A stretch of DNA of 64,000 nucleotides from an uncultured Holophagales bacterium (GTDB lineage: Bacteria > Acidobacteriota > Thermoanaerobaculia > Multivoradales > UBA5704). Under the pieces are notes generated by a model, which saw nothing but the letters and a program-made list of their open reading frames with translations, was not told the origin of the DNA and searched no databases. Positions 581-61,934 of this stretch are shown piece after piece. The position numbers and the translations under genes were made by a program. The stretch covers positions 78,125 through 142,124 of the forward strand of contig CAWJQA010000009.1 of assembly GCA_963844885.1 (NCBI GenBank), read 5' to 3'. Positions within the stretch are counted from its first letter, which is position 1; every line of letters starts with the position of its first letter.

Positions 581-1054
581 ACGGCGAAGTCACCTTCTCT
601 GCCGCAAAGTAAACTCCCCTGTCGCAAAGTCAACTCCTCTGTCGCAAAGTCAACTCCTCTGTCGCAGAGTCGACTCCCCTGTCGCAAAGTCGACTCCTCT
701 GTCGCAAAGTCGACTCCTCTGTCGCAAAGTCAACTCCTCTGTCGCAAAGTCAACTTCCCTGAGCCAAAGCAACCTTCTCTACGGCGATGTAACGTTCCCT
801 ACGCCAAAGTAACCTTACCCTGCGGCAAAGCAACCTTCCCTGGCTCCGGGAGCCTTACTTTGGCTCCGGGAAGGTTCTTTTGCCGCAGGGAAGTTTCCCT
901 GGCGCCAGAGACGTCCAAGTCCCCTCCCAGACAGCCGGGAGCCCGCCGGCCTGAGCGGGCTCCCGGCAATACGGTGAATCGATTTTCAATGAACCTCCGG
1001 TCGGCCCTGGACGGCTCCCCGGCTTGCGGGCGGCACGATACACGATCGCGAGCG
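581..1054 (+). repeat. Composite repeat, locus A: ~16 tandem 20-bp units (581-900) plus a conserved 154-nt tail (901-1054)
   Basis: Units line up exactly every 20 nt, with one 21-nt and one 19-nt unit; consensus GYCGCARAGTCRACTYCYCT. The tail has a 13-bp perfect stem at 934-946/955-967. Positions 761-1054 are almost identical to 22613-22906. Confidence 0.95.
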
Positions 1055-1196
1055 CTTTGACAATTTGGAGGGACGACGGCCGCCGAGTCCAAGGCCACCG
1101 TCGTTCCGCAGGGGTCCGCCTTTCAGGGAGGGGAGGCGGTGCCATCGCCGGAGGTGTGTGGGAGGGGCTCGTGGGTGAGCGGCGGTGGCGGCCTCT
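1051..1196 (+). repeat. 146-nt repeated element (M2), copy 1; possibly a structured RNA
   Basis: Aligns over its full length with 27789-27934, with about 5 substitutions. Three predicted stems: ACGACGG/CCGTCGT, CCGCCT/AGGCGG and GCCATCGCCG/CGGCGGTGGC. Confidence 0.85.
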
Positions 1197-1560: not shown

Positions 1561-1610
1561 CCTCCCCTGCGGCAGAGTCAACTTCCTCAGCCTGTGGCAT
1601 AATGAGCTCA

Positions 1611-1769: not shown

Positions 1770-2363
1770 ATGGCCGAATACGACCCTCTCTTCACACCGG
1801 CCCGCACCGGCGAGGATGACCTCGAGCCGGTGCGGGATCATTTTCACCGGGCGAGCCGGCCGTTCCTGCGCAACCCGTGGTCGTGGTTCACCTGGGCCGT
1901 GTTTCTGCCGGCCGGCGCTTTTGCCACGCCTCTGGCTTTCCGGATGAGCGGCCCGGCGGCGGTTCTTTTCCTGTGGTCGGTGGTGATCCTGGTCGGCGGT
2001 GCGGTGGAGATTGTCGGCATCCGCCGCGCCGGTGGTGGGTTCGGCAGCGGCGCCTCCACGCTGGCCTCCTGGGTGCTGAGCGTGCAGGGCAACATCTCGC
2101 TGGTGGCGCTTCTGCTTTCCGCTTTGCTGGTGTGGGGAGACATGGCCTGGGCGCTCCCCGGGCTCTGGCTGCTCCTCCTCGGACACTCGTTTTACATGCT
2201 GGGCGGGCTCGCGTTTCCGCCGTTCCGGACCTGTGGCCTGATCTATCAGGTCGGCGGGCTCGCGTCTCTCTGGCCGGGCGGCCTCCCTCTCCTCGCCTTC
2301 GCGCTGGCGACGTTGGCCGGGAATCTCTGGATGGGGATCTCGATCTGGCGGGAGAAGGATTGA
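1770..2363 (+). CDS. Polytopic membrane protein of unknown function
   Basis: ATG at 1770, inside ORF 1761-2363. Several hydrophobic helices (FTWAVFLPAGAF, LFLWSVVILVGGAV, LWLLLLGHSFYMLGGL). Confidence 0.6.
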   Translation: MAEYDPLFTPARTGEDDLEPVRDHFHRASRPFLRNPWSWFTWAVFLPAGAFATPLAFRMSGPAAVLFLWSVVILVGGAVEIVGIRRAGGGFGSGASTLASWVLSVQGNISLVALLLSALLVWGDMAWALPGLWLLLLGHSFYMLGGLAFPPFRTCGLIYQVGGLASLWPGGLPLLAFALATLAGNLWMGISIWREKD

Positions 2364-2385
2364 TCTTTCCTATCGTGCGAGCTTT

Positions 2386-2443
2386 TCTCCCTCCCCCCCG
2401 CCCGCGCGGGGGGAGGGCCGGGGAGGGGGGAATGGGATCAATC
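2386..2443 (+). repeat. REP/MITE-like element type B, copy 1 (GC hairpin plus GGGATCAATC terminus)
   Basis: CCCTCCCCCC...GGGGGGAGGG hairpin followed by GGGGAATGGGATCAATC. Homologous to 51156-51212 (inverted) and 62021-62076. The TCA in its terminus is the stop codon of the GGDEF gene. Confidence 0.8.
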
Positions 2444-4003
2444 CTCTGCGAACTCGACCCGGTTCTTTCCGGTTCCTTTCGCGGTGTATAGCGCCTGGTC
2501 GGCCCTGGCGATCAGCTCGTCCGGATAGGTGCCGCGCCGGGGTGAGGCGGCGGCGACTCCGGCGCTCAGCGTCATGATCCGGCCCACCGGTGAGCTCTCG
2601 TGGGGGATCGCCAGCTCCTGGACGGCGGCGCGGACCGACTCCGCGTAGCGCAGCGCACCCGTGATGTCGCAGTCGGGCAGGATCGCCACGAACTCCTCGC
2701 CGCCATAGCGGGCCACCAGGTCGCCCGCCCTGCGCAGGCCGTCCCGGAGAATGGCGGCGACCTGCCGCAGGCATTCGTCCCCGCCCTGGTGACCGTACGT
2801 GTCGTTGAAGAGCTTGAACTCGTCGAGGTCGAGCATGACCAGCGCGAGGGAGGTGTCGTTCCGGTAGGCGCGCCGCCACTCGCTTTCGAGGGCTTCGTCG
2901 AAATGCCGCCGGTTGGCGATTCCCGTCAGGCCGTCGATGGACGAGAGGTGCTGGAGCCGCTGGTTTGCCTCTTCGAGCTGGCGGTTGATCGTCGCCATGC
3001 GGATGGCGCCGGCGAGTTGATCGGCAAAGGTCTTGAAGACGACCAGGTTCTCGGCCGAGAACGCTTCGGGATTGGTGCTCTCCAGGTCGAAGACCCCCAG
3101 GATCCAGTCGCGGAAGCGGATCGGCACGACAAGCTCGGAGGTCACGGCGTCGTGGAGCGGCACGTAGTCGGGATCGCCGCGCACGTCGAGCACGAGTTGC
3201 GCCTCGCCCAGGCTGAGCGCGCGGCCGACCACGCCGGTCCGCAGCGGCCAGCGTTGTCCCTGGTCCACCCGCAGCTCCAGCGTGCCGGCGCGGGCGGCAA
3301 GCTCGAACTCCGTCTCTTCCTCGTTGACCAGCAGGATCGTGACCACCGACAGGGAAAAATGTTCCTGTACGTAGTGGACGATGCGGTCGAGGAGTGAATG
3401 GAGCTCGCCCGCTTCGAGGGCCGTCTTGGAGACCTCGCTGACCATTTCGAGGAGCCGGGCGCGGCGCTGGACCTCCTGATACAATCGGGCGCTGGCGATG
3501 GCGCCCGCGATCTGTTCGGCCACCGTCTGCAGGAGCGGGAGCTGGTCGTGAAACGCTCCGACCTCCGTGCTCTCCAGGTTCAGGATGGCCACGATCCGGC
3601 CGCCGTGGCGCACCGGCACGCAAAGCTCGGAGCGGGTGTCGGGCATGGTGTCCACGTAGTCGGACGAGGTGCGCACGTCGTCGAGGAGGATCGACTCGCC
3701 GCTCAGTGCAACCAGGCCGACGATCCCGGTCCCCAGTGGGCGGGTGTAGCCGATGTTGACCGCCGACGGGAGGAGCGTGGAGAGCGCCTCGCAGACGAAG
3801 GCGCCCTGTTCGAGATCCACCGATACGCAGGAGACGAACTGCCAGCCGAAGCTCTGCATCAGCGTGTCGGTGATGCGCTGGAGCATCGGGCGCAGCTCAA
3901 GGTCGAGCGTCGCGATGCGCGCGATGTCGTTGAGCGCCTCGAGCTGCCGGTTGCGGGCTCGGGCGGGCGGGGCCATGTCGGGTTCACCCATTGGTGTGGA
4001 CAA
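2438..4003 (-). CDS. GAF-GAF-GGDEF diguanylate cyclase
   Basis: 521-aa ORF with two GAF-like N-terminal regions and a C-terminal GGDEF domain (RYGGEEF active-site motif, DxLTG upstream). Confidence 0.9.
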   Translation of the reverse strand: MSTPMGEPDMAPPARARNRQLEALNDIARIATLDLELRPMLQRITDTLMQSFGWQFVSCVSVDLEQGAFVCEALSTLLPSAVNIGYTRPLGTGIVGLVALSGESILLDDVRTSSDYVDTMPDTRSELCVPVRHGGRIVAILNLESTEVGAFHDQLPLLQTVAEQIAGAIASARLYQEVQRRARLLEMVSEVSKTALEAGELHSLLDRIVHYVQEHFSLSVVTILLVNEEETEFELAARAGTLELRVDQGQRWPLRTGVVGRALSLGEAQLVLDVRGDPDYVPLHDAVTSELVVPIRFRDWILGVFDLESTNPEAFSAENLVVFKTFADQLAGAIRMATINRQLEEANQRLQHLSSIDGLTGIANRRHFDEALESEWRRAYRNDTSLALVMLDLDEFKLFNDTYGHQGGDECLRQVAAILRDGLRRAGDLVARYGGEEFVAILPDCDITGALRYAESVRAAVQELAIPHESSPVGRIMTLSAGVAAASPRRGTYPDELIARADQALYTAKGTGKNRVEFAED

Positions 4004-4035
4004 GTGTATCCACTACGCGCGATTTGCGCGAGGGC

Positions 4036-4650
4036 TCAGGCCACCGGACGGTGGGAGAGGGTCTCGGAGCCGCTCAGGAAATCACTCAGGGAGCGGCCAC
4101 CGAGCGCCAGGAGGAGCGGCAGTCCCAGGAGCACCGAGGTGACGACTCCGCCGAGCCAGCGCCGGGCCGTCTGATCGAAGGCCAGCGGCTCGCCGTCGCG
4201 GCTGCGGGCGTCGAGCCCGGCCCAGGCCATGCCCGGGGTGTGGCCCCAGAAGGCCAGCGGCACCACCGTGTAAAGGAACGAGAACGCGAGAAGGAACAGG
4301 CCGATCGCCGGCCAGTCGGAGAGCGCCGGCCGCACGCCCAGCGAGCGGCAGCCGAGCAGCAGGCCCACGCCCACGGCGGCATGGACGAGCAGGTCCGCGG
4401 CTCCGGCGGCGAGGCGGCTGCCCACCCCGGCGCGCAGGGGGCCGCCGACGGGCGCCACTCCGGCGCCCGTCTCGTCGAGGATGGAGCCGAGGTCGGGCTC
4501 TGGTTCCGGGGGCGGTATCGACGGCATCGGCGCGGGGGACGGGGGGCGCGGAGAGCGCTTGCGCTCCACCGCCGGCCGGTCCCGCTCCTGTTCGAGAGGA
4601 AGGTCGAAGAGAAAGGGCTCGTCCGGCGGTTCCTGATCCTGGCGTCGCAT
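4036..4650 (-). CDS. RDD-family membrane protein
   Basis: ATG at 4650 overlaps the upstream stop (TGATG). The C-terminal half has the RDD-family pattern (HTPGMAWAGLDARSRDGEPL, RRWLGGVV) and TM helices. Confidence 0.7.
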   Translation of the reverse strand: MRRQDQEPPDEPFLFDLPLEQERDRPAVERKRSPRPPSPAPMPSIPPPEPEPDLGSILDETGAGVAPVGGPLRAGVGSRLAAGAADLLVHAAVGVGLLLGCRSLGVRPALSDWPAIGLFLLAFSFLYTVVPLAFWGHTPGMAWAGLDARSRDGEPLAFDQTARRWLGGVVTSVLLGLPLLLALGGRSLSDFLSGSETLSHRPVA

Positions 4651-6767
4651 CAGCGCAGGGGGAGGTGCTTGACGTAGATCCGGTAGAGCAGATCCTTGGG
4701 CCGGTCCTTGTAGGTCTGCGCGAAGGCGAGCTGTCGTTGCAACCCCTTGTCGTTCGGATCGAGGCCGACCGCCTCGTGGAAGTTGTCGACCGCCTTGTCG
4801 GAGTCCATGCGCTGGAGGTCGCGCAACCCCAAGTTGTAGTACGAGTCGACCATCAGGCGCGTCACGTCGCGGTTGGCGGGTTCGGCCTCGTGCATCCGCC
4901 AGAGATCGCGCAAGGCATGCTCCCACTCGTGCTGGCGAAAAAGATCGAGCTGGGCCGCGAGCGGCTCGGTCTGGCGCTTCGCGCTGGCCAGCATTTCGGC
5001 GTCCGCCGGTTCGAGCGGCCCCTGCGCGGCGGCCTGATCGAGCCGCCGGATGACTTCGAGGTAGTTCCCACCCTGGTACGCGTCGCGGGCGGCGGTGAGG
5101 ATGGCGAGCCTCTCCGGCGAGATGGGCGGCGGAGTCGCGGCGGGCGCGGGCGTGGCGGACGGGGTCTCCGGAGTGCCTGGAGCGTTGGTCGACCACTGCT
5201 TGATCAGCTCCTGGGCACGCTGGTAGGCCGGATCGCTCGGCGGGACCCGCTTGAGCTGCGCGAGGGCGCTCTGCGTCTTGCCGGACTTCTGGAGGTCGGT
5301 CGCCCGGCCGATCGGGTCGGTGATCGCCGGGCCGCCCAGCTCGGATTCGTCGGTCTGTGAATTGGGGAAAAGCTTGTCCCGGTTCAGATAGACGAACCCG
5401 CCACCCGCCAGGGCGAGCACCAGCACGGCGCTGCCGACGAGGACGAACGTTTTCCGTGCCCGCCCTTCGCGGGCCGGGGCGCCGATCGGCTTCGGCTTCT
5501 GCTTCGCGCGCGCGCGCTCGGCCGCGGCGACCTCGCTGGGGTCCGGCGGGATGAGGATCTCTTCCTTGAGCTCGCCGCTGTCGAGGCCGATCTCGGAAGG
5601 CATCGGCAAGGCGGACGCCGTGGTCTCCCGCGGCTTGTGCTTGACTGTCGGAACGGTGCCGGCCTCGATCTGCTGCAGGTATTCGCGGGCCGCGAAGTGG
5701 CCCGGCTGGATCTCCAGCACGCGCTCGAAAGCCAGCTTGGCGCCCTGGAGATCGCCGGCCTCGATTTTCGAAGTGCCCTCGTGGAAGACCTCCTCGGCCT
5801 GGCGTTCGCTCTCGGCCTTGAGCTTGCGCGCCTGATCGATCCGGCGCGCGGCCTCCTGATTGTCGATGTCGATCAGGAAGATGCGCGACCAGGCGTCGAT
5901 CGCCCCTTGGAGGTCACCGCTGTCATAGGCGTTCTGGCCCTCGGCCAGAAGCTCGCGGATGCGGCGGTCGGACTCCGAATCGCCGCTGCTCATGCTGGCT
6001 TCGAAGTCGGCGGCGGAGACGAGCTCCGGGTCCAGGGACGGAGCCGCGGCCGGCTCGTCGAAGGAGAGATCCAGGGGCGGCGCGTCGAAGCTCAGGTCGG
6101 GCAGGTCGAGGCTGCCGGCCGGATCATCGAAGCTCATCTCGAACCCCATGTCCGTGGCGGCGGCCTCCGGCTGACCGTACATGGCGGGGGGGGCCGGAGC
6201 CGCGGGAGCCGGAGCGCCAGCCATCGAGGCGAGGGCCGCGAGAGCCGGATGGGAATCGTCGAGCGCGCGAATCTTTTCGGCGAGGCGCGCCACCTCGTCG
6301 TGCTGGCCGAGGCGGGAGGCCTCCTGAGCGGCCTTCAGGAACTTGTTGACGTAAGGCTCGGCCTCCATCCGCTCCTGCGCCGCGGTGGCCATCCGCATCA
6401 GCTCGGGATCGCGGCCGACGGCCTCCTGTTGCTGATGGGCGAGCCCCAGCAGCTCCTGGAAGCGGCGGGCCGCAAGCAGAGACTGGAAGCTGCTCCGCAG
6501 GTCGCCCGGGCCGGCGGCCGGAGCGGGCGCACCGGTGGCCGGGGCCGGAAGGAGGTCGTCGACCCGCACCGGGCCGGTGCTGTCGCGCAGCCGCTCCTGG
6601 AGCCGCCGGGCGGGCTCGAACTGGGAGTCCATCCGGAGAACGAAATCACAGCCGAGGAGGGCCTCCTGGCGGTTCCCTTCGGCGGCGAGCCCAAGGGTCT
6701 GCTCGAAGGTCCCAAGGACCCGTTTCTGGATGTCGGAGGAGAGCGACGGATTCCCGGCGTAGGGCAT
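4650..6767 (-). CDS. TPR-repeat protein with a single central TM segment
   Basis: 705-aa intact ORF with multiple TPR-like helical repeats, a low-complexity Ala/Pro linker and the TM segment FVLVGSAVLVLALAGGGFVYL. Confidence 0.8.
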   Translation of the reverse strand: MPYAGNPSLSSDIQKRVLGTFEQTLGLAAEGNRQEALLGCDFVLRMDSQFEPARRLQERLRDSTGPVRVDDLLPAPATGAPAPAAGPGDLRSSFQSLLAARRFQELLGLAHQQQEAVGRDPELMRMATAAQERMEAEPYVNKFLKAAQEASRLGQHDEVARLAEKIRALDDSHPALAALASMAGAPAPAAPAPPAMYGQPEAAATDMGFEMSFDDPAGSLDLPDLSFDAPPLDLSFDEPAAAPSLDPELVSAADFEASMSSGDSESDRRIRELLAEGQNAYDSGDLQGAIDAWSRIFLIDIDNQEAARRIDQARKLKAESERQAEEVFHEGTSKIEAGDLQGAKLAFERVLEIQPGHFAAREYLQQIEAGTVPTVKHKPRETTASALPMPSEIGLDSGELKEEILIPPDPSEVAAAERARAKQKPKPIGAPAREGRARKTFVLVGSAVLVLALAGGGFVYLNRDKLFPNSQTDESELGGPAITDPIGRATDLQKSGKTQSALAQLKRVPPSDPAYQRAQELIKQWSTNAPGTPETPSATPAPAATPPPISPERLAILTAARDAYQGGNYLEVIRRLDQAAAQGPLEPADAEMLASAKRQTEPLAAQLDLFRQHEWEHALRDLWRMHEAEPANRDVTRLMVDSYYNLGLRDLQRMDSDKAVDNFHEAVGLDPNDKGLQRQLAFAQTYKDRPKDLLYRIYVKHLPLR

Positions 6768-6874
6768 ATCGGAAGGTAAGATGAGGTTTCAGGTTGAAAG
6801 TCGCAGCTATCCTACCAGAGGACTCCTTGGCGTACAACGAAACGAGCCTTCCCCATTGCTATACTTCCGCCCCC

Positions 6875-7774
6875 ATGCCGCCGCTGGAGTGCGTTCCCAA
6901 CGTGAGTGAAGGCCGCCGGCCGGAGGTGGTGGCCCGGCTTGCCGCCGCCGTGACCTCGGTGCCGGGCGTCCGGCTGCTCGACGTCTCCTCCGATCCCGAC
7001 CACAACCGTACGGTGTTCACCCTCGCCGGGACGGCCGGAGACCTTCGCGCGTCGCTCCTGGCGCTGTACGAGACAGCGCTGCGGGAGATCGACCTCACCC
7101 GTCACCAGGGGGTCCATCCCCGGGTCGGCGCGGTCGACGTGGCTCCGTTCGTTCCGCTGGGAGACACTCCCATGGAAGAGGCCGTGGCCGCCGCCGAGGC
7201 CCTGGCGGCGGAGGTGGCGGAGCGCTTCGACCTCCCGGTCTATCTCTATGAGAAGGCCGCGCGCCGTCCGGAGAGGCGCCTGCTGGCCGACATCCGCCGC
7301 GGCGGCTTCGAGGGCTTGCCGGCGAAGATGGCCGACCCCGCCTGGTCGCCCGACTTCGGCCCGAACCGGGTCCACCCCACCGCCGGAGCGACCGTGATCG
7401 GCGCCCGTTTCTTTCTGATCGCCTTCAACGCCGTGCTCGACACCCCGGACGTGGCCATCGCGAGAGCCGTGGCGAAGAAGGTGCGGGAGTCCGGGGGAGG
7501 ACTCCCCGCGGTGCGGGCCATGGGCGTCTTCCTGGCGAGCCGGGGCCACGCCCAGGTCAGCATGAACCTGGTGGATTTTCGGAGAACCTCGGTGCTGACC
7601 GCGCTGAACCGCGTCCGGCAGGAAGCCGAGGCTCTGGGCGCGCGGGTGGTGGAGAGCGAGCTCATCGGCCTGATGCCGGAAGAGGCGGCGACGGGAGTGA
7701 TGCGGGAGGCATTGCAGATACCAGGCTTCGCGCGGGGGAAGGTGCTCGAGAGCCACCTTCCCGGAGGGTGGTAA
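6875..7774 (+). CDS. Glutamate formimidoyltransferase (FTCD N-domain family)
   Basis: The protein from ATG 6875 begins MPPLECVPNVSEGRR, the hallmark ECVPNxSEGR N-terminus. Length is about 299 aa. Confidence 0.85.
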   Translation: MPPLECVPNVSEGRRPEVVARLAAAVTSVPGVRLLDVSSDPDHNRTVFTLAGTAGDLRASLLALYETALREIDLTRHQGVHPRVGAVDVAPFVPLGDTPMEEAVAAAEALAAEVAERFDLPVYLYEKAARRPERRLLADIRRGGFEGLPAKMADPAWSPDFGPNRVHPTAGATVIGARFFLIAFNAVLDTPDVAIARAVAKKVRESGGGLPAVRAMGVFLASRGHAQVSMNLVDFRRTSVLTALNRVRQEAEALGARVVESELIGLMPEEAATGVMREALQIPGFARGKVLESHLPGGW

Positions 7775-7886
7775 ACTTTGAGCATGGACACTCTCTCGGA
7801 GCACCTCGACTTTCTCGTTGCCCGAAGTGGTGAGGATGAGGCTACTGTTCTCGCCCAAGCCTTGCGCAAAGGGATCGATGCTCCGA

Positions 7887-8324
7887 TCAGTCACTTGGAG
7901 CGTTTTCGTGCTCTAATCGGGCAAGGAATGCGGCCGGACCGATTATCTGAATTCCCTCGAAGGGGTGAAGGACAAAAAGATCATCGTCCCCAGTTACGAT
8001 CACATGTGCCCGGCCGGCGAGAGCGGCCTCCAATACTTTGTTGTCCTTTGGATCGCGGCACGCCTCAACCGTAACAGACGAACGGACTGCTTCTCCTTCA
8101 GAGGCAAACAGGGTAACAACATTGGAGACATCTTCAGCCGAGATGCCATATTTATCTCGGAATCGCGGGCGGGTCAGGACGTCAGCAAGCTCCGCCAGGA
8201 GAGGTTCAGAATAGACGATCTGAAATCGGTGGGCCTTCAGTTGTTCCAGGATAAAACCTGTCGAGCCTTTGGGCTTCAAGATCGAACGGATGAGGATACT
8301 CGTGTCAATGACGGCACGAATCAT
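7887..8324 (-). CDS. PIN-domain toxin (PIN_3/TIGR00305-type)
   Basis: Starts MIRAVIDTSILI and has a distal acidic motif (VTGDDDL). It overlaps the upstream antitoxin by 4 nt. The patch is visibly AT-richer than its flanks. Confidence 0.9.
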   Translation of the reverse strand: MIRAVIDTSILIRSILKPKGSTGFILEQLKAHRFQIVYSEPLLAELADVLTRPRFRDKYGISAEDVSNVVTLFASEGEAVRSSVTVEACRDPKDNKVLEAALAGRAHVIVTGDDDLFVLHPFEGIQIIGPAAFLARLEHENAPSD

Positions 8325-8602
8325 CCGGCTATTTCCCTCCGCGCCTCCTCAACATCATCGGCGATCTCTTCGTCACTGTAGCCGGCGTTCTGTTCCGCCA
8401 TGCGCGCCCGGAGGCGTTCGATCCGTTCCCAGATGCCCTCCCTCTGAAGCCGCTGGAATCGCAAGTACTCGTCATAGGGAACGAGCACAGCCTCAGGCTC
8501 ATCTCGTTCGGTCACTACGCAGGAGATGTGACTCTCAGCGACCTCGCGGAGCACGGAGCGCATGTTGTACGCGAGCTCGTCTGCTGGAATTGTCCTTTGC
8601 AT
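8321..8602 (-). CDS. Phd/YefM-type antitoxin
   Basis: 93 aa, with N-terminal antitoxin-like beta-alpha pattern (VVTERDEPEAVLVPYDEY). Located immediately upstream of the PIN gene and overlapping it. Confidence 0.8.
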   Translation of the reverse strand: MQRTIPADELAYNMRSVLREVAESHISCVVTERDEPEAVLVPYDEYLRFQRLQREGIWERIERLRARMAEQNAGYSDEEIADDVEEARREIAG

Positions 8603-8624
8603 AGCTGTCGACCTTTCTCATCTA

Positions 8625-8653
8625 ATCCTAGCCGATTTCCTCCAGCATCGCAA
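8625..8653 (-). promoter_or_regulatory. Sigma70-like promoter candidate for the Phd/PIN operon
   Basis: On the minus strand: TTGCGA (8653-8648), a 17-nt spacer, then TAGGAT (8630-8625). It lies about 20 nt upstream of the antitoxin ATG. Confidence 0.4.
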
Positions 8654-8668
8654 ATTTTACGGTGATCT

Positions 8669-10084
8669 TCACCCCTTTAACGTCTCCAGCACCCGATACG
8701 GCATCCCCTCGAAGGAGCCGGACGACATCGTCACGACTACGTCGCCGGCCCGCGCCTCTTCGGTGGCCCGGCGCAGGATGTCGGCGGTGCCGGCGCAGAG
8801 GGTGACGGGGGTGCCGGCGGCGGTGAGCTCCTCGGCGAGGGCTCCGAAGTCGAGACGCTCCTCGTCGCTCAGCCGTCCCGCGTGGAAGGTGGGTGCGAGG
8901 AGGACGCGGTCGGCGCAGGCGAAGGCCTGGCGGTAGGGTTCGTGGAAGAAGCGGCGGCCGGCGGTGAGGCTGCGGGGCTCGAAAAGGACGACCAGGCGCC
9001 GGCCGGGGTAGCGCTGGCGCAGCGCGCCGAGGGTCTTCTCCACGGCCGTCGGGTGGTGGGCGAAGTCGTCGACCACGCTGACGCCGCGGGCGGTGCCCAG
9101 CTCTTCCAGGCGGCGCTTGACGCCGTGGAAGCGGGCGAAGGCGGCGGCCACGTCCGCGGCGGCGAGGCCGTCGCGCCGGGCCGCGGCCCAGACGGCGAGA
9201 GCGTTCGAGACGTTGTGGCCGCCGGCCAGGTTGAGCGAGACTTCCACCATCCCGGCCTCCCCCCCTTCGACATCGCGGACGCGGAAGCGGCTCCCTTCGG
9301 GCGTCGCCTCGATCGACTCCGGATGAAGCTCGTTGGACGGGTCCAGGCCATAGAAGAGGACGCGGCACCGGGCGAGGCCGGCCAGCTCGCGGATCTTGGA
9401 GTCGTCGCCGCAGGCCACCAGCAGACCGTCCTCGGGCAGGAGGCGGAGGAGCTGCGAGTAGGCCTCCCAGAGAACCTCGGGGCTCGGGTAGAGGTCGGCG
9501 TGGTCGTACTCGACGCTGGTGAGGATGAGCGTCTCGGGCATGTAGTGGAGGAACTTGGGCCCGCGGTCGAAGTAGGCGGCGTTGTACTCGTCGCCTTCGA
9601 TCACGAAGCGCTCGCCGAGGCCGTCGTGGAAGCTCGCGGGCAGGTCGCAGGGAGCGCCGCCGATCAGGTAGCCGGGGTCGGCGCCGCAGTCGGCATAGAC
9701 CCAGGCCGCCATCGCGGTGGTCGTGGTCTTGCCGTGCGTGCCGGCGACCACGAGAGGCCGGTGGCGGGAGAGGAAGAAACGGGCCAGCGCCTGCGGCATG
9801 GAGGCGATGGACAGGCCCAGCCGCTCGGCTTCGACCGCCTCCGGATTGTCGCGGCGGATGGCGTTGCCGACGATGACGAGGTCGGGCCGGGGCTCGAGGT
9901 GGGCGGGGTCGTACCCCACCTCGGGCCGGATGCCGGCCCGCTCGAGGAGGGTGCTCATGGGGGGGTAGAGGGGACCGTCGGTCCCCCTCACCCGATGGCC
10001 CTGCTCTTGCAGCAGGCAGGCGAGAGGCGCCATGCCGGTGCCACCGATGGCCATGCAGTAGATGTCGAGTGGAGTGAGCTTCAC
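8669..10084 (-). CDS. mpl: UDP-N-acetylmuramate:L-alanyl-gamma-D-glutamyl-meso-DAP ligase (murein peptide ligase)
   Basis: Mpl-specific YPPMSTLLE motif, GTHGKTTT P-loop and Mur ligase middle and C domains. GTG start at 10084 is assumed; an ATG lies 30 nt further in. Confidence 0.9.
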   Translation of the reverse strand: MKLTPLDIYCMAIGGTGMAPLACLLQEQGHRVRGTDGPLYPPMSTLLERAGIRPEVGYDPAHLEPRPDLVIVGNAIRRDNPEAVEAERLGLSIASMPQALARFFLSRHRPLVVAGTHGKTTTTAMAAWVYADCGADPGYLIGGAPCDLPASFHDGLGERFVIEGDEYNAAYFDRGPKFLHYMPETLILTSVEYDHADLYPSPEVLWEAYSQLLRLLPEDGLLVACGDDSKIRELAGLARCRVLFYGLDPSNELHPESIEATPEGSRFRVRDVEGGEAGMVEVSLNLAGGHNVSNALAVWAAARRDGLAAADVAAAFARFHGVKRRLEELGTARGVSVVDDFAHHPTAVEKTLGALRQRYPGRRLVVLFEPRSLTAGRRFFHEPYRQAFACADRVLLAPTFHAGRLSDEERLDFGALAEELTAAGTPVTLCAGTADILRRATEEARAGDVVVTMSSGSFEGMPYRVLETLKG

Positions 10085-10177
10085 AGGGCTTTTTCTCGTG
10101 GTCTTTCTCGTGTTTTGGGGCGCCAGAGTGTAGCATTGCCGGAGCCGAATCCAACGTATTTCAAAGGAGCTGTCCGC

Positions 10178-11203
10178 ATGAAACGTCACCTCAAGACCGC
10201 CAATCTGGCACTTGGCTGCGCCCTGCTGGTCGCGGCGAGTCTCTTCGCCCAGGGAGCCGCCGGCAAGCCCAAGGCCGTCGCGGCCGAGCCCATCAAGGAC
10301 ATCGGGGTCGTGGCGAAGGGTGAGAAGGCCGTCCACGACTTCGAGATCCGCAACGAAGGGGACGCCCCTCTGCTGATCCAGGAGGTCCGTGCCGCCTGCG
10401 GCTGCACCGTGGCGGACTACGACAACGTGATCGCTCCCGGCCAGAGCGGCAAGGTCCGCGTCTCCGTCGACACGTCCACGTTCAGCGGCGCCATCGCCAA
10501 GGGCGTGACCGTCTTCACGAACGATCCGGCGACGCCGCAGATGGAGCTGACCATCAAGGCGCAGGTCGAGCCGTTCATCAAGGTCAAGCCCGGCTATGCG
10601 CGCTACATCACGGTGCAGGGCGAGGACAAGGAGGGCACCATCGTCCAGACTCTCTGGACGCCGGACGGCTCGCCGATGAAGATCGTCAAGGTCGACTCGC
10701 CGTACCCCTACCTGAAGGTGGAGTTCCACGAGGCGAAGCCGGAGGAGCGGCTCAAGGAGATCGCCGACCAGCCGCAGTGGAAGGTCGAGATGCACCTGTC
10801 GAACGACGCGCCGGTCGGTCCGCTCACGGAGTCCGTGAAGATCTACACCGACAGCGCCAAGCAGAAGCTGGTGCAGGTGCCGGTCTCGGGGTTCGTCCGC
10901 CCGATGGTGGCTGTCACGCCGCAGGTGGCCGACTTCGGCCAGGTCACGGTGTCGGACCCCATCCGCAAGTCGCTCAACGTGCAGAATTTCGCGACGGAGC
11001 CGATCAAGATCACGGGCGTGGAGAGCAGCGTCCAGGGCATCGAGGCCCAGGTCGAGGCCATTCGGGATGGCCGTGAGTACGAGGTCCGGGTGACGCTGAA
11101 GCCGGAGATCGCCAAGGGCCAGTTCAACGGCAAGCTCTCCTTGACGACCGACAGCCCGAAGCTTCCGCGTATCGAGGTCGTGCTGAAAGGTACGGCGATT
11201 TAA
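10178..11203 (+). CDS. Secreted DUF1573-domain protein
   Basis: AAAGGAG RBS 8 nt upstream of ATG 10178. Signal peptide MKRHLKTANLALGCALLVAASLFA, and the ACGCTV motif typical of DUF1573. Confidence 0.8.
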   Translation: MKRHLKTANLALGCALLVAASLFAQGAAGKPKAVAAEPIKDIGVVAKGEKAVHDFEIRNEGDAPLLIQEVRAACGCTVADYDNVIAPGQSGKVRVSVDTSTFSGAIAKGVTVFTNDPATPQMELTIKAQVEPFIKVKPGYARYITVQGEDKEGTIVQTLWTPDGSPMKIVKVDSPYPYLKVEFHEAKPEERLKEIADQPQWKVEMHLSNDAPVGPLTESVKIYTDSAKQKLVQVPVSGFVRPMVAVTPQVADFGQVTVSDPIRKSLNVQNFATEPIKITGVESSVQGIEAQVEAIRDGREYEVRVTLKPEIAKGQFNGKLSLTTDSPKLPRIEVVLKGTAI

Positions 11204-11210
11204 GGGCCCC

Positions 11211-12038
11211 CTACGGCCGCCCCCAGAGGTCTTTCTCCGACTTGGCCGGCGCCTGGCGGCGCCGGCCTCGCGCGAGGATCTCCCGGACTTCTTCCGCCGT
11301 GGGGGCCAGGGCGGCGTCCTGGGCCAGGGCCAGCTCGCGGATGCCCTTGAAGGCAAGGTCGACCAGCGCGTCCATCTCTTCTCTTCGGAAGCTGCGTTTT
11401 TCTCCCGTGCCCTGGATTTCGACGAGCGAGCCGCCGGCGGTGGCGACCACGTTCATGTCAACTTCCGCCACCTGATCCTCCACGTACTCCAGGTCGAGCA
11501 GGGGCACTCCGCGCACGATGCCCACGGACACGGCGGCGAGCTGGTCGGTGATGGGCCACTCGGAGATGTCGCCGGTGAGCAGGAGGCGTCCGAGCGCCAG
11601 GCTTGCGGCCACGAAGGCGCCGGTGACGGCGGCGGTGCGGGTGCCGCCGTCGGCCTGGAGCACGTCGCAGTCGAGGGTCAGGGTGCGGTCGGGCATCTTG
11701 GTCGTGTCGATGACGGCGCGCAGGCTGCGGCCGATCAGGCGCTGGATCTCGGCCGTGCGGCCGGACGGCCGGCCCTGCGAGACCTCGCGGGCGCTGCGGG
11801 TGTGGGTGGCCCGCGGCAGCATCGAGTATTCGGCGGTGACCCAGCCCTGGCCTTTGTCCTTGAGGAACGGCGGCACGCGGTTTTCCACGCTGGCCGCGAC
11901 CAGGACCCGGGTATCCCCGATCTCGATCAGCACCGATCCTTCGGCGAACTTGAGGGCTCCGGTCTGGAGGCGGACGGGCCGGAGGGAGTCGGCGGAGCGG
12001 CCGTCGGGGCGGCGGGCGGTGAGGGGTGTTTCAGTCAT
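11211..12038 (-). CDS. rph: Ribonuclease PH
   Basis: Full-length match to the RNase PH pattern ([34 protein letters not shown]). Confidence 0.95.
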
Positions 12039-12106
12039 GCGCGCATTCTAGTGCGGTTCCGCTCATCCGAGAGGAAGAGACGCGCTCTGCTAGAATCCCC
12101 GACCCG

Positions 12107-15644: not shown

Positions 15645-16722
15645 ATGGCTCGTCCCCGCCTCGCGCTCACCCAGGGCGATCCGGCCGGGATCGGCCCCGA
15701 GATCCTGCTCAAGCTCCTGGCTTCGACTCCTGAAGACTGGCGGCCTCTCCTGGTCGCCGAGCGGGCGGCGCTGGAGGCGCTCCGCCCGTCCCTCCCCGGC
15801 TTCCCCTGGGACCGCCTGCGGTATTTCACCGGACCCGAGATCGAGGAAGGCGATTTCATCCCCGATAGCGATTCCCGTGCTCGATCCGGTCGGCGACCGG
15901 CGCACGATCTCGCTCGGCACGTCCGGTCCGGCGGACGCGGCCGGCGCCATGGCCGCGCTGGACGCCGGCATCGCGCTGGTTCGATCCGGCGCGGCCGATG
16001 CCCTGGTCACCGCGCCGGTGAGCAAGGAGTCGATCGCCCGCCACGTGCTGCCCGGCTTCAAGGGGCATACCGATTATCTGGCCGAGGCCTGCGGCCTGGA
16101 GCGCTACGGCCGCGACTACTTGATGGCCTTCCTGGCGCCGGAGCTCCAGGTGGCGCTCCTCACCGTCCACCTGCCGCTGCGGGAGGCGCTGGACGAGGTT
16201 CGCGGCGACACGATCGCCGAGGCGCTCGACTGTCTCCACCGCCATGCGGGAGGGAAGATCGCCCTGGCCGGCCTGAACCCGCACGCCGGAGAGGGCGGCC
16301 TGCTCGGCGAGGAGGACGGCCGCATCCTGGCGCCCGCCGTGGCCGCGGCAAGGGCGAGGGGCATCGACGTCCATGGTCCCGAGAGCGCCGATTCGCTCTT
16401 CGCTCGCGCCCGCCGCGGTGAATTCGACTGGGTCCTCGCCCTCTACCACGATCAAGGGCTGATCGCGGTGAAGACCTCCTCCTTCGGGCTGGCCACGAAC
16501 TGGACCCTGGGCCTGCCCTTCCTCAGAACCTCGGTCGACCACGGCACCGCCTTCGCCCTGGCCGGCAAGGGAGTCGCCGATGAAAAACCGCTGGCGGAGG
16601 TGGTGGAGACGACCCTGGGGCTGATCGCGGGCCGGCTGCCTAGGAAGCGCCCTCACCCCCCGGCCCCCTCTCCCGGTCCGCCCAAGCACACCCGCCCCGG
16701 GAGAGGGGGAGACTTGCTTTAA
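15645..16722 (+). pseudogene. pdxA: 4-hydroxythreonine-4-phosphate dehydrogenase, one frame change near 15866; the C-terminal tail is encoded by a REP element
   Basis: The N-terminus [20 protein letters not shown] is in frame 0. The rest (GLNPHAGEGG, YHDQGL, RTSVDHGTAF) is in frame 1, with the junction in a C4 run. The last ~24 codons read through repeat type A. Confidence 0.75.
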
Positions 16723-16794
16723 GGGTTACTCCCCCCTCGCCCGGGGCGGGGGACTCGGGTGGACCGGGAGAGGGGGGTCAGGGGGGGTGAGGGC
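16649..16794. repeat. REP/MITE-like element type A: two inverted copies between convergent genes
   Basis: 16649-16713 and the reverse complement of 16729-16794 align (CCCTCACCCCCC..CCCCCTCTCCCGG..CCGGGAGAGGGGG). Each copy has a 13-bp internal stem. The element ends exactly at the stop codon of the gene at 16795. Confidence 0.85.
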
Positions 16795-18270
16795 CTACGA
16801 CGCTCCCCGACCCGTGATCACCACCGGGATCGTCTTCAGCAGGATCTTCAGGTCCAGCATCGGCGACCAGGAGTCGATGTACTCCAGGTCGAGCTGCATC
16901 CAGCGGTCGAAGTCGATGTTGTTCCGGCCGCTGATCTGCCACAGGCAGGTGAGCCCGGGCTTCATGGCGAGGCGGCGGCGCTGCCAGCGCTGATACTGGG
17001 CGACCTCCTCGGGGATCGGCGGACGGGGGCCGACCAGGCTCATGTCGCCGCGCAGCACGTTCCAGAGCTGCGGCAGCTCGTCCAGGCTGAAGCGGCGGAG
17101 GAACCGGCCCAGGAGCGTCACCCGCGGATCGCTCTTCAGCTTGAACACCGGCCCCTTCATCTCGTTGAGGTGCATCAGCTCGCGGCGCCGCTCCTCGGCG
17201 TCCTCCACCATCGTGCGGAACTTGTACAGCGTGAAGAAGCGGCCGTTGAGACCGCAGCGGGTCTGGCGGAAGAGCACCGTGCCGCCCGAGGTGACCTTGA
17301 TCAACAGCCCGATCATCGTCACCACCGGCAGGCCGATCAGCAGCAGGAACGAGGCGAGCGCCACGTCCAGCGCCCGCTTCGCCATGAGCTGGAGCTGGCT
17401 CGTCGGCGTCGTGGCGAAAGACAAGAGCGGCATGCCGTCCAGATCCTCCATCTCGACCCGCGCCAGCGTGTGGGGGAAGAGATCGAGCGCGAAGCGGGTG
17501 CGGATCCCCTGCTCCTGGAGGCTGAGGAAGAGATCCTCCAGCCGGTCGAGCTCGCGGCGATGAACCGCGAAGATCACGTCGTCCACCACGTTGCTCTCGA
17601 CGATGCGCGGGATGTCCTCCACCTGGCCGAGCAGCGGATAGCGCCCCGTCCACGGCTCGCCAGGAAGATGACCGTTGCCCCCGCTCCCGGTACCCGTGTC
17701 GATGAACCCGAGCACCCGGAAGCCCCAGAAGCGGTGGACGCGGATCGACTCCGCGATGCGGTGGGCTGTCGGGCCCGTGCCCACGATCAGCACCGCCCGG
17801 TAGTTGTATCCGTGCGCCCGGACATAGCGGGCGGTCGTGCGCACCGCCAGCTTCTCCGTCAGCAGGAACAGGCAGGCGAACCCGGCGAACAGGAACACCC
17901 AGAAGCGGCTGATCCGGTCGTTCCCGAGCAGGTGCTCGTCCACCCGGGCGATGTAGAGGATCAGCGTGAAGATCACCGCGCCCGACAGGCAGACCCGGAG
18001 GATGGCCCAGGCCTCGTCGAGGATCGGCACCGTCCGGTGCGAGCGGTAGCGGCCGGACGACAGCAGCAGCCCGCCCCAGATCGCCAGCGCCAGCGGCAGC
18101 AGCGGCAGGTACTCGGACAACGGGTACAGGCGGCTCGGGAACGTTCCCGGGGCCAGCCAGGGCAGGAACCAGCTCCGCACCGCGAACGCCGTGAGAAACG
18201 CGGCGGCGACAAGAGCGAGATCCAGCAGGAAGATACCAACCGCGAGGATCCGGGCTCGTTCTTTCAGCAT
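16795..18270 (-). CDS. Polyprenyl-phosphate glycosyl-1-phosphate transferase (bacterial sugar transferase, WcaJ/EpsB-like priming enzyme)
   Basis: 491 aa with N-terminal TM helices and a C-terminal sugar-transferase domain (KRALDVALA, LYKFRTM, DELPQLWNVLRGDMSLVGPRP). Confidence 0.9.
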   Translation of the reverse strand: MLKERARILAVGIFLLDLALVAAAFLTAFAVRSWFLPWLAPGTFPSRLYPLSEYLPLLPLALAIWGGLLLSSGRYRSHRTVPILDEAWAILRVCLSGAVIFTLILYIARVDEHLLGNDRISRFWVFLFAGFACLFLLTEKLAVRTTARYVRAHGYNYRAVLIVGTGPTAHRIAESIRVHRFWGFRVLGFIDTGTGSGGNGHLPGEPWTGRYPLLGQVEDIPRIVESNVVDDVIFAVHRRELDRLEDLFLSLQEQGIRTRFALDLFPHTLARVEMEDLDGMPLLSFATTPTSQLQLMAKRALDVALASFLLLIGLPVVTMIGLLIKVTSGGTVLFRQTRCGLNGRFFTLYKFRTMVEDAEERRRELMHLNEMKGPVFKLKSDPRVTLLGRFLRRFSLDELPQLWNVLRGDMSLVGPRPPIPEEVAQYQRWQRRRLAMKPGLTCLWQISGRNNIDFDRWMQLDLEYIDSWSPMLDLKILLKTIPVVITGRGAS

Positions 18271-18343
18271 GGAATAGGGAGTTCTCTCCGGAGCGGTTTC
18301 ATCATGCCGCTCGCTATTCTAACGTGCGACAGGCGAGTTGCAT

Positions 18344-19489
18344 CTAGGGTTCCCCGTTATTTTCATGGTGAATCATACTTTGGAAGAGATCGGCATACCG
18401 GTCGGCGACCCTTTCCCAGGAGTAGAGGAGGGCCGCCCGGCGGGCCGCCGCCCGCCCGCGGGCCGCGGCCCGGCCCGGCTGGAGGCGCACCCGCTCGACC
18501 TGCTCGGCGAGCGAGGCAGGGGCCGCGGCCTTGAAATAGAGGCCCACGCCGCCGGCCACCTCCCGGTTCTCCGGCGTGTCGTTGACGATCACGCAGTTGC
18601 CGTAGCCCATGGCTTCGACCAGCGCCGGATGGGTCCCGCCCACCTCGGTCGCATGGATATAGGCCCGTGCATGCAAAAGAAGCTCCCGGTAGCCCTCGCC
18701 GTAGATGGGTCCGGGGAAGAGGATGCGCGGGTCCGCCCCCTCCGTGAAGCCGCGGATGAACGAACCGGCGTACGGGGCGCCGCCGACCATCACCAGCGGC
18801 AGGTCGCCGCCGGCCAGGCGGTACGCCTCGGCCACCCGGTGCGGGTTGTTCTCCGGCTCGAACCGGCTGACATAGAGGAAGTAGCCGCGGTGGGTCAGGC
18901 CCAGCCGCTTCAGGACAGTTTCCTCGGTGGGAGGACGCTCCGCGGGCGGATGCGGCTCGACCCCATAGGAGATCGAGACCGACTCCGCACCGTAGCGGTC
19001 CAGATAGTGCCGGCGGATGACCTCCGCGTCGGTCACCAGGACGTCCGGCAGCACGCAGGCGAGCCGTTCGGACAGCGCGTACACGAAGCGGCCGACCGGC
19101 CCCCACTTGGCGCGCCGCTTCTCGATCCCGTCCACGTGGAGCGCCACCGGGATGCCGCCGAGCCGCAGCAGCGGCACGAAGACCGCGTTCGCGGAGTTGA
19201 CCACCAGCGCCGCGTCGAACCCCGTCCGCGCCGCATGCAGGCAGGAGAGAAAGGTATGGACCGGCGTGTCCAGATACTTGCTCCGGATCGTGGGCAGGAC
19301 GACCAGCTCGGCGCCGCGATACTCCTTCAAGGAGCGCGGCGTCGAGTGGGACCGGCAGTAGACGGTGACCCGGAACCCGCGGGCCACGAGCCGCGCCGCC
19401 AGCTCCTCCATCAGGGTCTCGTAGCCGCCGTAGCGGTTCGGGATGCCGCGGCTGCCGATCAGGGCGATTCTCGGGGGAGGTGGATGCAT
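18344..19489 (-). CDS. GT-B fold glycosyltransferase (GT4, DUF1972-type N-terminus)
   Basis: ATG at 19489. IALIGSRGIPNRYGGYETLMEEL N-terminus and a C-terminal GT1/GT4 EGFGL-like region (EVGGTHPALVEAMGYG). Confidence 0.85.
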   Translation of the reverse strand: MHPPPPRIALIGSRGIPNRYGGYETLMEELAARLVARGFRVTVYCRSHSTPRSLKEYRGAELVVLPTIRSKYLDTPVHTFLSCLHAARTGFDAALVVNSANAVFVPLLRLGGIPVALHVDGIEKRRAKWGPVGRFVYALSERLACVLPDVLVTDAEVIRRHYLDRYGAESVSISYGVEPHPPAERPPTEETVLKRLGLTHRGYFLYVSRFEPENNPHRVAEAYRLAGGDLPLVMVGGAPYAGSFIRGFTEGADPRILFPGPIYGEGYRELLLHARAYIHATEVGGTHPALVEAMGYGNCVIVNDTPENREVAGGVGLYFKAAAPASLAEQVERVRLQPGRAAARGRAAARRAALLYSWERVADRYADLFQSMIHHENNGEP

Positions 19490-19605
19490 GCGCGGGAAGG
19501 TTATACGCAGCAGGCCGCCATGGGAAATCGCGGAACGGTGTCCGTCCATTCCTCTGTCGCCGTCCGGCGGAAGCCTTCCGCCATCGGATCGAAAGGAGAC
19601 ACGCG

Positions 19606-22332: not shown

Positions 22333-22394
22333 GCCGCATGATCGCATAGAGACCGCCAGGTGGGTGACCCAGGCGAGGTGGCAGGTCTCCATCC

Positions 22395-22906
22395 GGCCCG
22401 GGAACCTTCCCCGCCACAAAGTAAACTCCTCTGTCGCAAAGTCGACCTCCCTGCGGCGAAGTAAACTTCTCTGCCGCAAAGTCGACTTCTCTGCCGCAGA
22501 GTCGACTCCCCTGTCGCAAAGTCGACTTCTCTGCCGCAGAGTCGACTCCCCTGTCGCAAAGTCAACTCCTCTGTCGCAAAGTCGACTCCCCAGAGCCAAA
22601 GTCAACTTCCCAGAGCCAAAGCAACCTTCTCTACGGCGATGTAACGTTCCCTACGCCAAAGTAACCTTACCCTGCGGCAAAGCAACCTTCCCTGGCTCCG
22701 GGAGCCTTACTTTGGCTCCGGGAAGGTTCTTTTGCCGCAGGGAAGTTTCCCTGGCGCCAGAGACGTCCAAGTCCCCTCCCAGACAGCCGGGAGCCCGCCG
22801 GCCCGAGCGGGCTCCCGGCAATACGGTGAATCGATTTTCAATGAACCCCCGGTCGGCCCTGGAAGGCTCCCCGGCTTGCGGGCGGCACGATACACGATCG
22901 CGAGCG
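22395..22906 (+). repeat. Composite repeat, locus B: ~17-18 tandem 20-bp units (22395-22752) plus a conserved tail (22753-22906)
   Basis: Same 20-bp register and unit consensus as 581-900. Positions 22613-22906 differ from 761-1054 at only 3 positions seen by eye. The array ends about 60 nt from the GT operon start codon. Confidence 0.95.
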
Positions 22907-23006
22907 CCAGTCAAGAGGCCAATCCGCTGATCTGATCTGCGGTGAGCCGCGTCCTCGCGTCTTATCGTGACCATGGTACAGTGACCAGGGTCAGAGGAGG
23001 TGGATC

Positions 23007-23240: not shown

Positions 23241-23632
23241 TCGTGCTCGACACCCACGTATGGGTCTGGTGGGTCGCGGTCCCCGAGCAGCTCTCCGCTC
23301 CGGCCCGGGAGGTGATCGACCAGGCGATGGAGCGAGGGGAGATCTGCATCTCCTCGATCAGCTCCTGGGAGATCGCCCTTCTGGTCCGCAAGGGAAGGTT
23401 GGAACTGACGATTCCAGTCGACGACTGGATCGCCAAGAGCGAGGCACTGCCCTTCATCCAGTTCGTCCCGCTCGACAATCGGATCGCCTTTCGCTCCAAC
23501 GATCTGCCCGGTGATCTCCATGAAGACCCAGCAGACCGCATCATCGTCGCGACAGCCCTGACGCTGGGGGCTCCTCTCGTTTCCAGGGATTCCAAGATCA
23601 GGGATTACCCCCATCTCAAGACGATCTGGTGA
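23237..23632 (+). CDS. vapC: PIN-domain ribonuclease toxin VapC
   Basis: MIVLDTHVWVWW N-terminus (Asp4) and the distal DPADRIIVATA motif. 131 aa. A TTG start overlaps the vapB stop. Confidence 0.9.
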   Translation: MIVLDTHVWVWWVAVPEQLSAPAREVIDQAMERGEICISSISSWEIALLVRKGRLELTIPVDDWIAKSEALPFIQFVPLDNRIAFRSNDLPGDLHEDPADRIIVATALTLGAPLVSRDSKIRDYPHLKTIW

Positions 23633-35693: not shown

Positions 35694-35772
<79 letters not shown>

Positions 35773-61932: not shown

Positions 61933-61934
61933 GA

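Follow-up and report, generated by a model that had tools for sequence, protein, structure and literature searches.

A candidate mosaic interspersed repeat of 20-bp units, foldback, and hairpin at two loci of an uncultured Holophagales bacterium

Two copies of a composite 20-bp repeat element

A 64-kb stretch of DNA from an uncultured Holophagales bacterium (contig CAWJQA010000009.1; the whole stretch is referred to as the window) carries two direct copies of one non-coding element, at 581–1055 (locus A, element length ∼465 bp) and 22404–22907 (locus B, ∼505 bp). Locus A begins 10 nt 3′ of the stop codon of a thioesterase-domain gene and is followed directly by a second repeat, D5; to the right of D5 lie ∼350 bp of unassigned DNA, a solo unit, a small open reading frame (ORF), and a membrane-protein gene at 1770. 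Locus B separates two divergent sets of genes, a GT2 glycosyltransferase operon on the minus strand and a phd/vapC module on the plus strand, with its left end ∼70 bp upstream of the GT2 start (MRPRL..., ∼22332) and its right end 100 bp upstream of phd/vapC. The element runs from a 20-bp head-to-tail array through four decayed units, three inverted units, and a 13-bp hairpin to an 88-nt tail (Table 1). Alignment of the two loci bears out the first-pass annotation of this DNA, which had proposed one composite element at two sites.

The consensus 20-mer GTCGCAAAGTCAACTCCTCT was matched 13 times at ≤3 mismatches, as compared to 0.00 matches expected from shuffles, with every match on the plus strand and within 601–760 or 22413–22592. 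The degenerate core GCARAGTCRACTYCY gave 14 exact matches (0 expected), the fourteenth being the solo unit at 1572–1586, so that the solo copy reported previously is real. Tandem Repeats Finder detected a period of 20 at 587–755, 745–842, and 841–898, and in three matching pieces of locus B (22413–22750). Start-to-start spacing of the units is exactly 20 bp, equal to the unit length, and the units abut with no spacers, consistent with the earlier judgment that the array is not one of clustered regularly interspaced short palindromic repeats (CRISPR). About 16 head-to-tail units had been described at locus A. The region 581–900 does comprise 16 registers of 20 bp (one edge, eight well-kept, four decayed, and three inverted units), but the last three (841–900) are not head-to-tail with the others; they are reverse complements of the unit and pair with 781–840. 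Because decayed units face reverse-complement units in this way, the region constitutes a long imperfect foldback. The 154-nt tail described beyond the units (901–1054) was found as stated, with its perfect 13-bp stem and an 8-nt loop at 934–967; no T-run follows this hairpin on either strand.

Good units have a GC content of 54 to 56% at both loci, as compared to 68% for the window, and each contains a near-palindrome of 10 to 12 bp, which reads GAGTCGACTC in G variants only and is interrupted in the commonest unit variant, GTCAAC. Five positions are polymorphic among the central units, all by transitions, and the other unit positions are fixed. Locus A exhibits runs of identical adjacent units, with decayed units flanking the array at both edges; the ten good units of locus B exhibit a 40- and 60-bp higher-order period (Tandem Repeats Finder).

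The segment 745–1055 corresponds to 22597–22907 with 4 differences in 311 nt, at 760, 952, 996, and 1012, as determined by local alignment and base-by-base comparison. Three differences had been noted for the shorter pair 761–1054 and 22613–22906, and that count is exact (952 in the hairpin loop, 996, and 1012), although the near-identity is wider than was claimed. Two indels of 20 bp each separate the arrays of the two loci, as do changes at the five polymorphic positions of the unit, in agreement with the proposals that unit number and order vary between the loci and that the array changes faster than the distal segment. Description of the variable units as promoter-proximal is not retained, as no promoter was shown on that side. 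Homology stops sharply on the right, at 1055 in locus A and 22907 in locus B, and on the left fades into decayed units at ∼592 and 22404, respectively. The duplication is limited to the element, the flanks of the two copies being unrelated on both sides, and no third copy of the distal segment is present in the 64-kb window. Repeat D5 (1051–1206 and 27789–27944; 156 nt, 94% identity, beginning TTTGACAA) had no Rfam match, and its copy at 1051 begins right at the end of element A, such that two repeat families abut without a spacer.

Pfam searches of the ORFs flanking both copies identified thioesterase, GGDEF, GT2, Phd, PIN, and TPR domains; the GGDEF protein (2438–4003) shares 86% and 76% identity with proteins from two Holophagales metagenome-assembled genomes (MAGs). 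The window is collinear with relative L001 over 1771–12069 and with relatives L211–L213 over 16206–22334. At the position equivalent to the left of 1771, relatives carry atpC/atpD, and at the position equivalent to the right of 22334, they carry another GT2 gene and a 1107-aa gene, both absent from the window. The element is absent from both orthologous junctions in related Holophagales. Since 1771–22334 is syntenic and its outer neighbors differ, both copies, in direct orientation, border a conserved block and are embedded in junction DNA that is strain-specific. Searches near the two copies revealed no transposase, integrase, rep, or par gene (Pfam on flanking ORFs; tblastn for IntI). The block measures 20.6 kb, and the site upstream of its GT operon carries a different toxin–antitoxin pair (MazE/PIN) in relative L213, for which reason this site resembles an insertion hot spot.

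Table 1. Positions of the parts of the element at both loci, of promoter-like sites, and of a separate G-rich repeat family
Feature	Positions	Strand	Remarks
Locus A, decayed edge unit ACGGCGAAGTCACCTTCTCT	581..600	+	Begins 10 nt past the TAG stop (569–571) of the thioesterase-domain gene
Locus A, eight well-kept 20-bp units GYCGCARAGTMRACTYCYCT	601..760	+	GC 54%; near-palindromic 10–12 bp core ARAGTCRACTYC per unit
Locus A, four decayed units	761..840	+	5′ arm of foldback; near-identical distal segment begins here
Locus A, three inverted units	841..900	+	3′ arm of foldback
Locus A, perfect hairpin, 13-bp stem GCCGGGAGCCCGC, 8-nt loop	934..967	.	A/B difference 952 in loop
Locus A, unique tail, 88 nt	968..1055	+	Homology to locus B stops at 1055
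Solo ∼1.5-unit copy CCTGCGGCAGAGTCAACTTCC...	1566..1590	+	Same orientation as element A, 510 bp to its right
Locus B, ten 20-bp units and partial edge unit	22404..22612	+	Two units more than A; variant order differs
Locus B, four decayed and three inverted units (foldback)	22613..22752	+	Identical to A 761–900
Locus B, hairpin, same 13-bp stem	22786..22819	.	Loop base C vs T in A
Locus B, unique tail	22820..22907	+	Two substitutions vs A (22848, 22864); homology stops at 22907
Locus A, sigma-70-like site TTGTCA-17-TATCGT	1035..1063	-	-10 within element, -35 in flank (start of repeat D5); consensus match only
Locus B, sigma-70-like site TTGACT-16-TATCGT	22887..22914	-	-10 within element, -35 in non-homologous flank; directed through element to GT operon
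G-rich REP-like family, window	2395-2443, 62028-62076, 16642-16776, 61928-62001
G-rich REP-like family, relative L001	2819-2874, 3568-3619, 12227-12279

Coding capacity, RNA families, and distribution

A coding function was rejected, as no reading frame is common to both copies and no Pfam family was detected; owing to the 40-bp difference in length, the shared part lies in different frames at the two loci. ORFs through the element gave no Pfam family even at E = 1, and six-frame translation of element B gave no match among 5.8 billion proteins. A search of Rfam with 500–1800 returned nothing near threshold, the single match above threshold in the whole window being a tRNA at 35699–35772. A small RNA acting as a Csr/Rsm protein sponge was likewise rejected: the best match, RsmW, reached 19.2 bits (E = 1.3), far short of the gathering score of 52, the minus-strand GGA motifs sit in predicted 12-bp stems, and no terminator was found. 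Integron attC/attI sites were also excluded, since AGTCAAC/GTTGACT fits just six of seven positions of the core site RYYYAAC...GTTRRRY, core sites are missing from the foldback arms, and tblastn revealed no IntI homolog in the window. Hallmarks of miniature inverted-repeat transposable elements were not observed, in that neither end is an inverted copy of the other (ACGGCGAAG.../ACCTTC... on the left, ...GATCGCGAGCGC on the right) and the flanks of A and B have no common direct duplication. No cas genes were present among the flanking ORFs examined by Pfam.

Distribution was examined in 185,579 species genomes, JGI metagenomes, IMG/VR viral contigs, plasmids, and phages. Exact and degenerate scans of the genomes, metagenomes, and viral contigs with an anchor 27-mer gave 0 matches, as did scans of the same collections with a 30-mer unit dimer and with a looser 43-column pattern. 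BLAST revealed no similarity among 72,556 plasmids and no match among phages. No match to the element was obtained by BLAST in 2.18 Mb of fetched loci that included Holophagales relatives. The element matches no described family and has no demonstrated function.

A scan with a periodic pattern, CARAGT at 20-bp intervals, yielded at least 104 arrays. Among the arrays listed, the five most similar to the window unit are all from Acidobacteriota, and of the 14 unforced positions, agreement with the window consensus extends to 6.33 for the listed Acidobacteriota arrays as compared to 3.54 for the others (Mann–Whitney p = 6e-5). This excess similarity persisted when one value per genome and GC-rich units only were considered (p = 0.003). 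A second periodic pattern gave no significant excess (p = 0.13), and on that account, the sequence comparison suggests, and does not prove, true kinship of the window array with the other Acidobacteriota arrays. The periodic patterns drew in many 20-bp variable-number tandem repeats that are unrelated to the element, and matches outside Acidobacteriota are probably for the most part chance arrays that fit the pattern. The Acidobacteriota arrays of this type occur several per genome and exhibit a conserved distal end; several of them are not palindromic (z ∼0), and no obvious neighboring gene is common to them. In two pairs of loci (L187/L192 and L163/L193), the same array type recurs with the same flanks and with different unit number and order, and the arrays of L187 and L192 start 9 nt past the stop codon of the gene before them, an arrangement like that of locus A. 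A further related locus, L171 (MAG MFD03066.bin.2.238, reverse strand), contains a 17-unit array of AGAGTCAACGTCTCC type ∼210 bp upstream of an ORF at 1814–2860, followed by a second 20-bp array of GGAAGCTCCGGG type. The L171 array adjoins a tyrosine recombinase of integron type and an IS91-like ORF present in two copies; neither was found at the other related array loci, making L171 a single case.

Origin of the element and competing explanations

The explanation that we favor, with a confidence of about one half, is that the element is a lineage-specific, non-coding, non-autonomous mosaic interspersed repeat (a "foldback minisatellite element"), comparable in kind to BOX elements, bacterial interspersed mosaic elements (BIMEs), and mycobacterial interspersed repetitive units (MIRUs). 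In the proposed course of events, the old, decayed end of a 20-bp array would have become partly inverted, giving rise to the foldback. One copy may then have derived recently from the other, or gene conversion may keep the copies alike; either possibility is suggested by the presence of only 4 differences in 311 nt (∼1%). Slippage and unequal recombination would add or remove whole 20-bp units and conversion would shuffle the few transition polymorphisms among units, these processes together outpacing point substitution in the unique part. A "conserved anchor" with a hypervariable array was the pattern put forward in the first-pass annotation. Because turnover of tandem DNA is faster than substitution, no dedicated diversifying machinery is needed for a turning-over array beside a conserved segment, and recent copying (∼1% divergence) with ordinary slippage or unequal exchange suffices. 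Whole-unit indels, the 40- and 60-bp period in B, the identical runs in A, and the decayed edges all fit slippage and unequal exchange; in tandem repeats generally, decayed edge units around a homogenized center are the usual mark of slippage, unequal exchange, and conversion. As no host function is needed, the element could be selfish or neutral. Any effects on neighboring genes would probably be incidental, exerted through transcripts with strong folding and perhaps, at locus B, through a minus-strand promoter that points outward and supplies the GT operon. Copying could have proceeded by homologous or illegitimate recombination together with accessory DNA, or by means of an enzyme supplied in trans by a gene outside the element. 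Several further repeat families, tandem or palindromic, occupy intergenic DNA of the window, consistent with a repeat-permissive genome.

In the BOX elements of Streptococcus pneumoniae, conserved modules at the ends are joined to internal tandem modules whose number varies; BOX elements have been judged parasitic, yet are transcribed and structure-forming (PMC3049150). The Holophagales element is reminiscent of BOX (boxA-boxB(n)-boxC) in being a small intergenic non-coding mosaic of a conserved end module and a variable tandem module, with strong secondary structure, a narrow taxonomic range, and possible cotranscription with its neighbors. Its right module (745–1055) is conserved and its tandem module contains 8 or 10 units; no distinct left module was found, the left end consisting of decayed units. 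In contrast to BOX, with which it has no sequence similarity, the element has a unit of 20 bp rather than ∼45 bp (boxB) and two copies (in 64 kb) rather than >100, and the foldback of inverted units is found here only.

The first-pass annotation asserted that the element is not a repetitive extragenic palindrome (REP). Like the REPs of BIMEs, the element is an intergenic cluster of short units with partial palindromic character, and a position right after a stop codon is frequent in both (10 nt at locus A); the resemblance is one of lifestyle rather than of unit arrangement. Within BIMEs, successive REPs have opposite orientations and linkers between them; the array units here, by contrast, are head-to-tail on one strand with no linker, the last three alone being inverted, and the unit lacks a GTAG-type head. 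The 12-nt core ARAGTCRACTYC is palindromic in G variants only, and folding of the arrays is stronger than that of shuffled sequences for either strand (z −3.7 to −7.9). REPs number tens to hundreds per genome and have a cognate RAYT transposase; a RAYT gene was not noticed here, although no systematic search was aimed at RAYT. MIRUs and other variable-number tandem repeats (VNTRs) are similar in being intergenic tandem repeats of tens of base pairs that change by whole units and have degenerate edge units. They differ in that the present element was copied to a second locus along with a 311-nt segment of unique and foldback sequence, and because this segment was copied with the array, the element is better described as interspersed than as a single-locus VNTR. 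A conserved flank adjoining a repeat array is also seen in CRISPR loci, but here there are no spacers and the 20-bp unit is shorter than CRISPR repeats.

Several observations weigh against an origin as a neutral or selfish mosaic repeat. The element has no hallmarks of transposition (terminal inverted repeats or target-site duplication), and its copying mechanism is one that we infer. Two copies and one solo unit were seen in 64 kb, which does not demonstrate a multi-copy family. A minus-strand promoter-like site is present at both loci with its -35 in non-homologous flank, and two 5/6 matches would arise by chance with a probability of ∼2e-4 (hand estimate). The exact 20-bp phasing and palindromic core equally suit a protein-binding platform. 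A core of approximately CARAGTCA.C..CTC is common to the window unit and to 20-bp arrays of other Acidobacteriota classes, and arrays are kept at orthologous intergenic loci of different species (L187/L192 and L163/L193); retention of such a motif across the phylum would be surprising in purely neutral satellites.

An alternative that we consider unlikely, although several of these observations favor it, is that the array is a phased DNA-binding platform, in which a dimeric protein of iteron, partition-centromere, operator, or nucleoid type would bind the core ARAGTCRACTYC and unit number would tune the strength of binding. Since the core recurs every 20 bp, or about two helical turns, such a protein could polymerize along the array. 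R6K gamma-ori 22-bp iterons and pSK41 parC 20-bp repeats are contiguous repeats of 20 to 22 bp, and iteron and parC arrays comprise 4 to 10 units beside rep or par genes on the replicon. The element resembles plasmid iterons and type II centromeres in its contiguous direct repeats of ∼20 bp, helical phase, and partial dyad symmetry, and its 8 to 10 contiguous 20-bp units correspond to the direct repeats of 17 to 22 bp in phase by which iterons are recognized. Strict phasing, the 10- to 12-bp palindromic core of the G variants, the AT enrichment of the array relative to the window, the restriction of polymorphism to five positions that vary only by transitions, the excess similarity to other Acidobacteriota arrays beyond pattern-forced positions, and the retention of arrays at orthologous loci are each consistent with bound DNA. 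The gene setting argues otherwise. Unlike plasmid iterons, the element has no rep or par gene beside it, is found at two loci, and resides among chromosomal core genes with conserved synteny in relatives; searches of plasmids and phages gave no match, no DnaA box or AT-rich unwinding region was identified at the element, and no parA/parM–parB/parR genes of a partition system are among the flanking ORFs. The setting is also inconsistent between copies, A following a stop codon and B lying between divergent genes. Moreover, the commonest variant, GTCAAC, is not palindromic, several related arrays have z ∼0, and the binding protein is wholly hypothetical. The first-pass proposal of an iteron or protein-binding array drew on unit length, phasing, and the partly palindromic core only, and is weakened by the lack of an adjoining rep, par, or regulator gene.

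A broader version of this idea is rather improbable: the window array would belong to a phylum-wide class of phased 20-bp (sometimes 21-bp) arrays with the core CARAGTCA.C..CTC, kept as a polymerization platform for a DNA-binding protein (in nucleoid organization, segregation, or silencing) or as strand-specific recombination sites, and not as junk satellites. Equally doubtful is the narrower claim that the motif common to the Acidobacteriota arrays reflects a shared binding protein or RNA role.

We give a similarly low probability to a minus-strand RNA transcribed from the promoter-like site at the right edge, with its start near 1028 in A and 22880 in B. Such an RNA would serve as leader of the GT operon at B and as a free or antisense RNA at A, possibly acting as a protein sponge. 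Its predicted architecture, at the same low confidence, begins with a 5′ domain and continues through the 13-bp hairpin and the long foldback to tandem 12-bp stems from adjacent units. Promoter-like sites occur at the same position in both copies, one per region as compared to 0.1 expected from shuffles, but they match the consensus weakly (-10 TATCGT). Predicted folding energies are lower for the minus strand (−230.5 and −275.0 kcal/mol) than for the plus strand (−172.9 and −214.6 kcal/mol), with 27 to 28 as compared to 7 to 9 G-U pairs and, at locus A, a z-score of −6.85 as compared to −3.41. However, z-scores for the arrays alone are similar on both strands (−3.7 vs −5.2; −7.9 vs −7.1), indicating that the asymmetry in raw folding energy is largely an effect of base composition. 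On the minus strand, the 12-mer GRAGUYGACUYU is self-complementary through wobble pairing in every observed unit variant, whereas of the two substitutions outside the loop, one disrupts a predicted pair; the DNA alignment of the foldback arms settled on a register different from that of the minimum free energy fold. The operon at B lacks the upstream genes found in relatives and may thus need a new promoter. At A, the transcript would extend into a convergent gene in antisense orientation, and in neither case was a terminator found on the minus strand or an Rfam family recognized; the GGA motifs expected of a sponge lie within stems.

It is very unlikely that the element marks a boundary of mobile or accessory DNA (the end of an island or a recombination site) or that the 21.8-kb block was moved by recombination through the element. 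The two directly oriented copies do lie at both ends of the block 1771–22334, which is syntenic in relatives without the element, and toxin–antitoxin genes and other repeats are found in the flanks. Nevertheless, integrase, transposase, and tRNA genes were not found at the junctions, terminal inverted repeats and target-site or att-like duplications are lacking, ∼700 bp of other DNA separates element A from the edge of the block, and two different contigs cover the block in relatives. The earlier likening to the structured end of a mobile element is not supported: it has on its side the position of both copies at synteny breakpoints beside strain-specific DNA, and against it the absence of terminal inverted repeats, target-site duplication, transposase, and integrase. 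An assembly artifact or plain segmental duplication is highly unlikely, for although tandem arrays assemble poorly and two copies were seen, the duplication has sharp ends and unrelated flanks, the two arrays are internally consistent yet different, and a separate solo unit exists.

If the mosaic-repeat explanation is correct, the element would represent a new architecture among small interspersed repeats of bacteria, from a poorly studied phylum, in which a 20-bp minisatellite is joined to a foldback built from inverted copies of its own unit and then to a hairpin and a tail. The arrays should vary in length between strains and could serve as a practical marker; they can also break short-read assemblies. 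With two copies in direct orientation, the intervening 21.8-kb block, which includes a glycosyltransferase cluster of exopolysaccharide type, can be deleted or moved. The importance of the element would rise only if the cross-phylum motif reflected a shared binding protein or RNA function, in which case it would point to an unrecognized chromosome-level system in Acidobacteriota.

Other repeats in the window

Just 3′ of an ORF ending at 54620, six tandem 41-bp hairpin units (AAATCTCAGGGG...CCCCGGGGTCTGAGATTT; 93% matches) occupy 54668–54917. A further array, at 32764–33047 within a 1.2-kb gap between convergent genes, contains ∼14 copies of ATCTTCC phased every 21 bp, with a perfect 16-bp palindrome, ATCTTCCCGGGAAGAT. 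The motif CTTCCC/GGGAAG occurs 12 times in 300 bp of this array and 4 times in each of the distal segments of A and B, as compared to an average of 0.3; its sharing between the 21-bp array and the element is borderline and confounded by tandem duplication. At 41815–41918, a 9-bp unit, AAAGGACMY, repeated ∼5 times faces its complement, GTCCTTTRK, also repeated ∼5 times, across 19 bp, forming a long composite hairpin. A G-rich, REP-like palindromic family (CCCCCGCCGCGCGGGGGGAGGGC.GGGGAGGGG..AATGGGATCAA and CCCCCTCTCCCGG...GGGAGAGGGGG; Table 1) is 87 to 93% identical to sequences of a related Holophagales MAG and, unlike the element studied here, is conserved across species. Near locus B, a perfect 43-bp tandem duplication (23759–23844) lies just downstream of vapC, and a 46-nt stretch of the vapC 3′ region (23506–23551) is repeated 7.9 kb away, at 31414–31459, with 96% identity; the latter similarity points to another PIN-toxin gene, or what is left of one, at that site.

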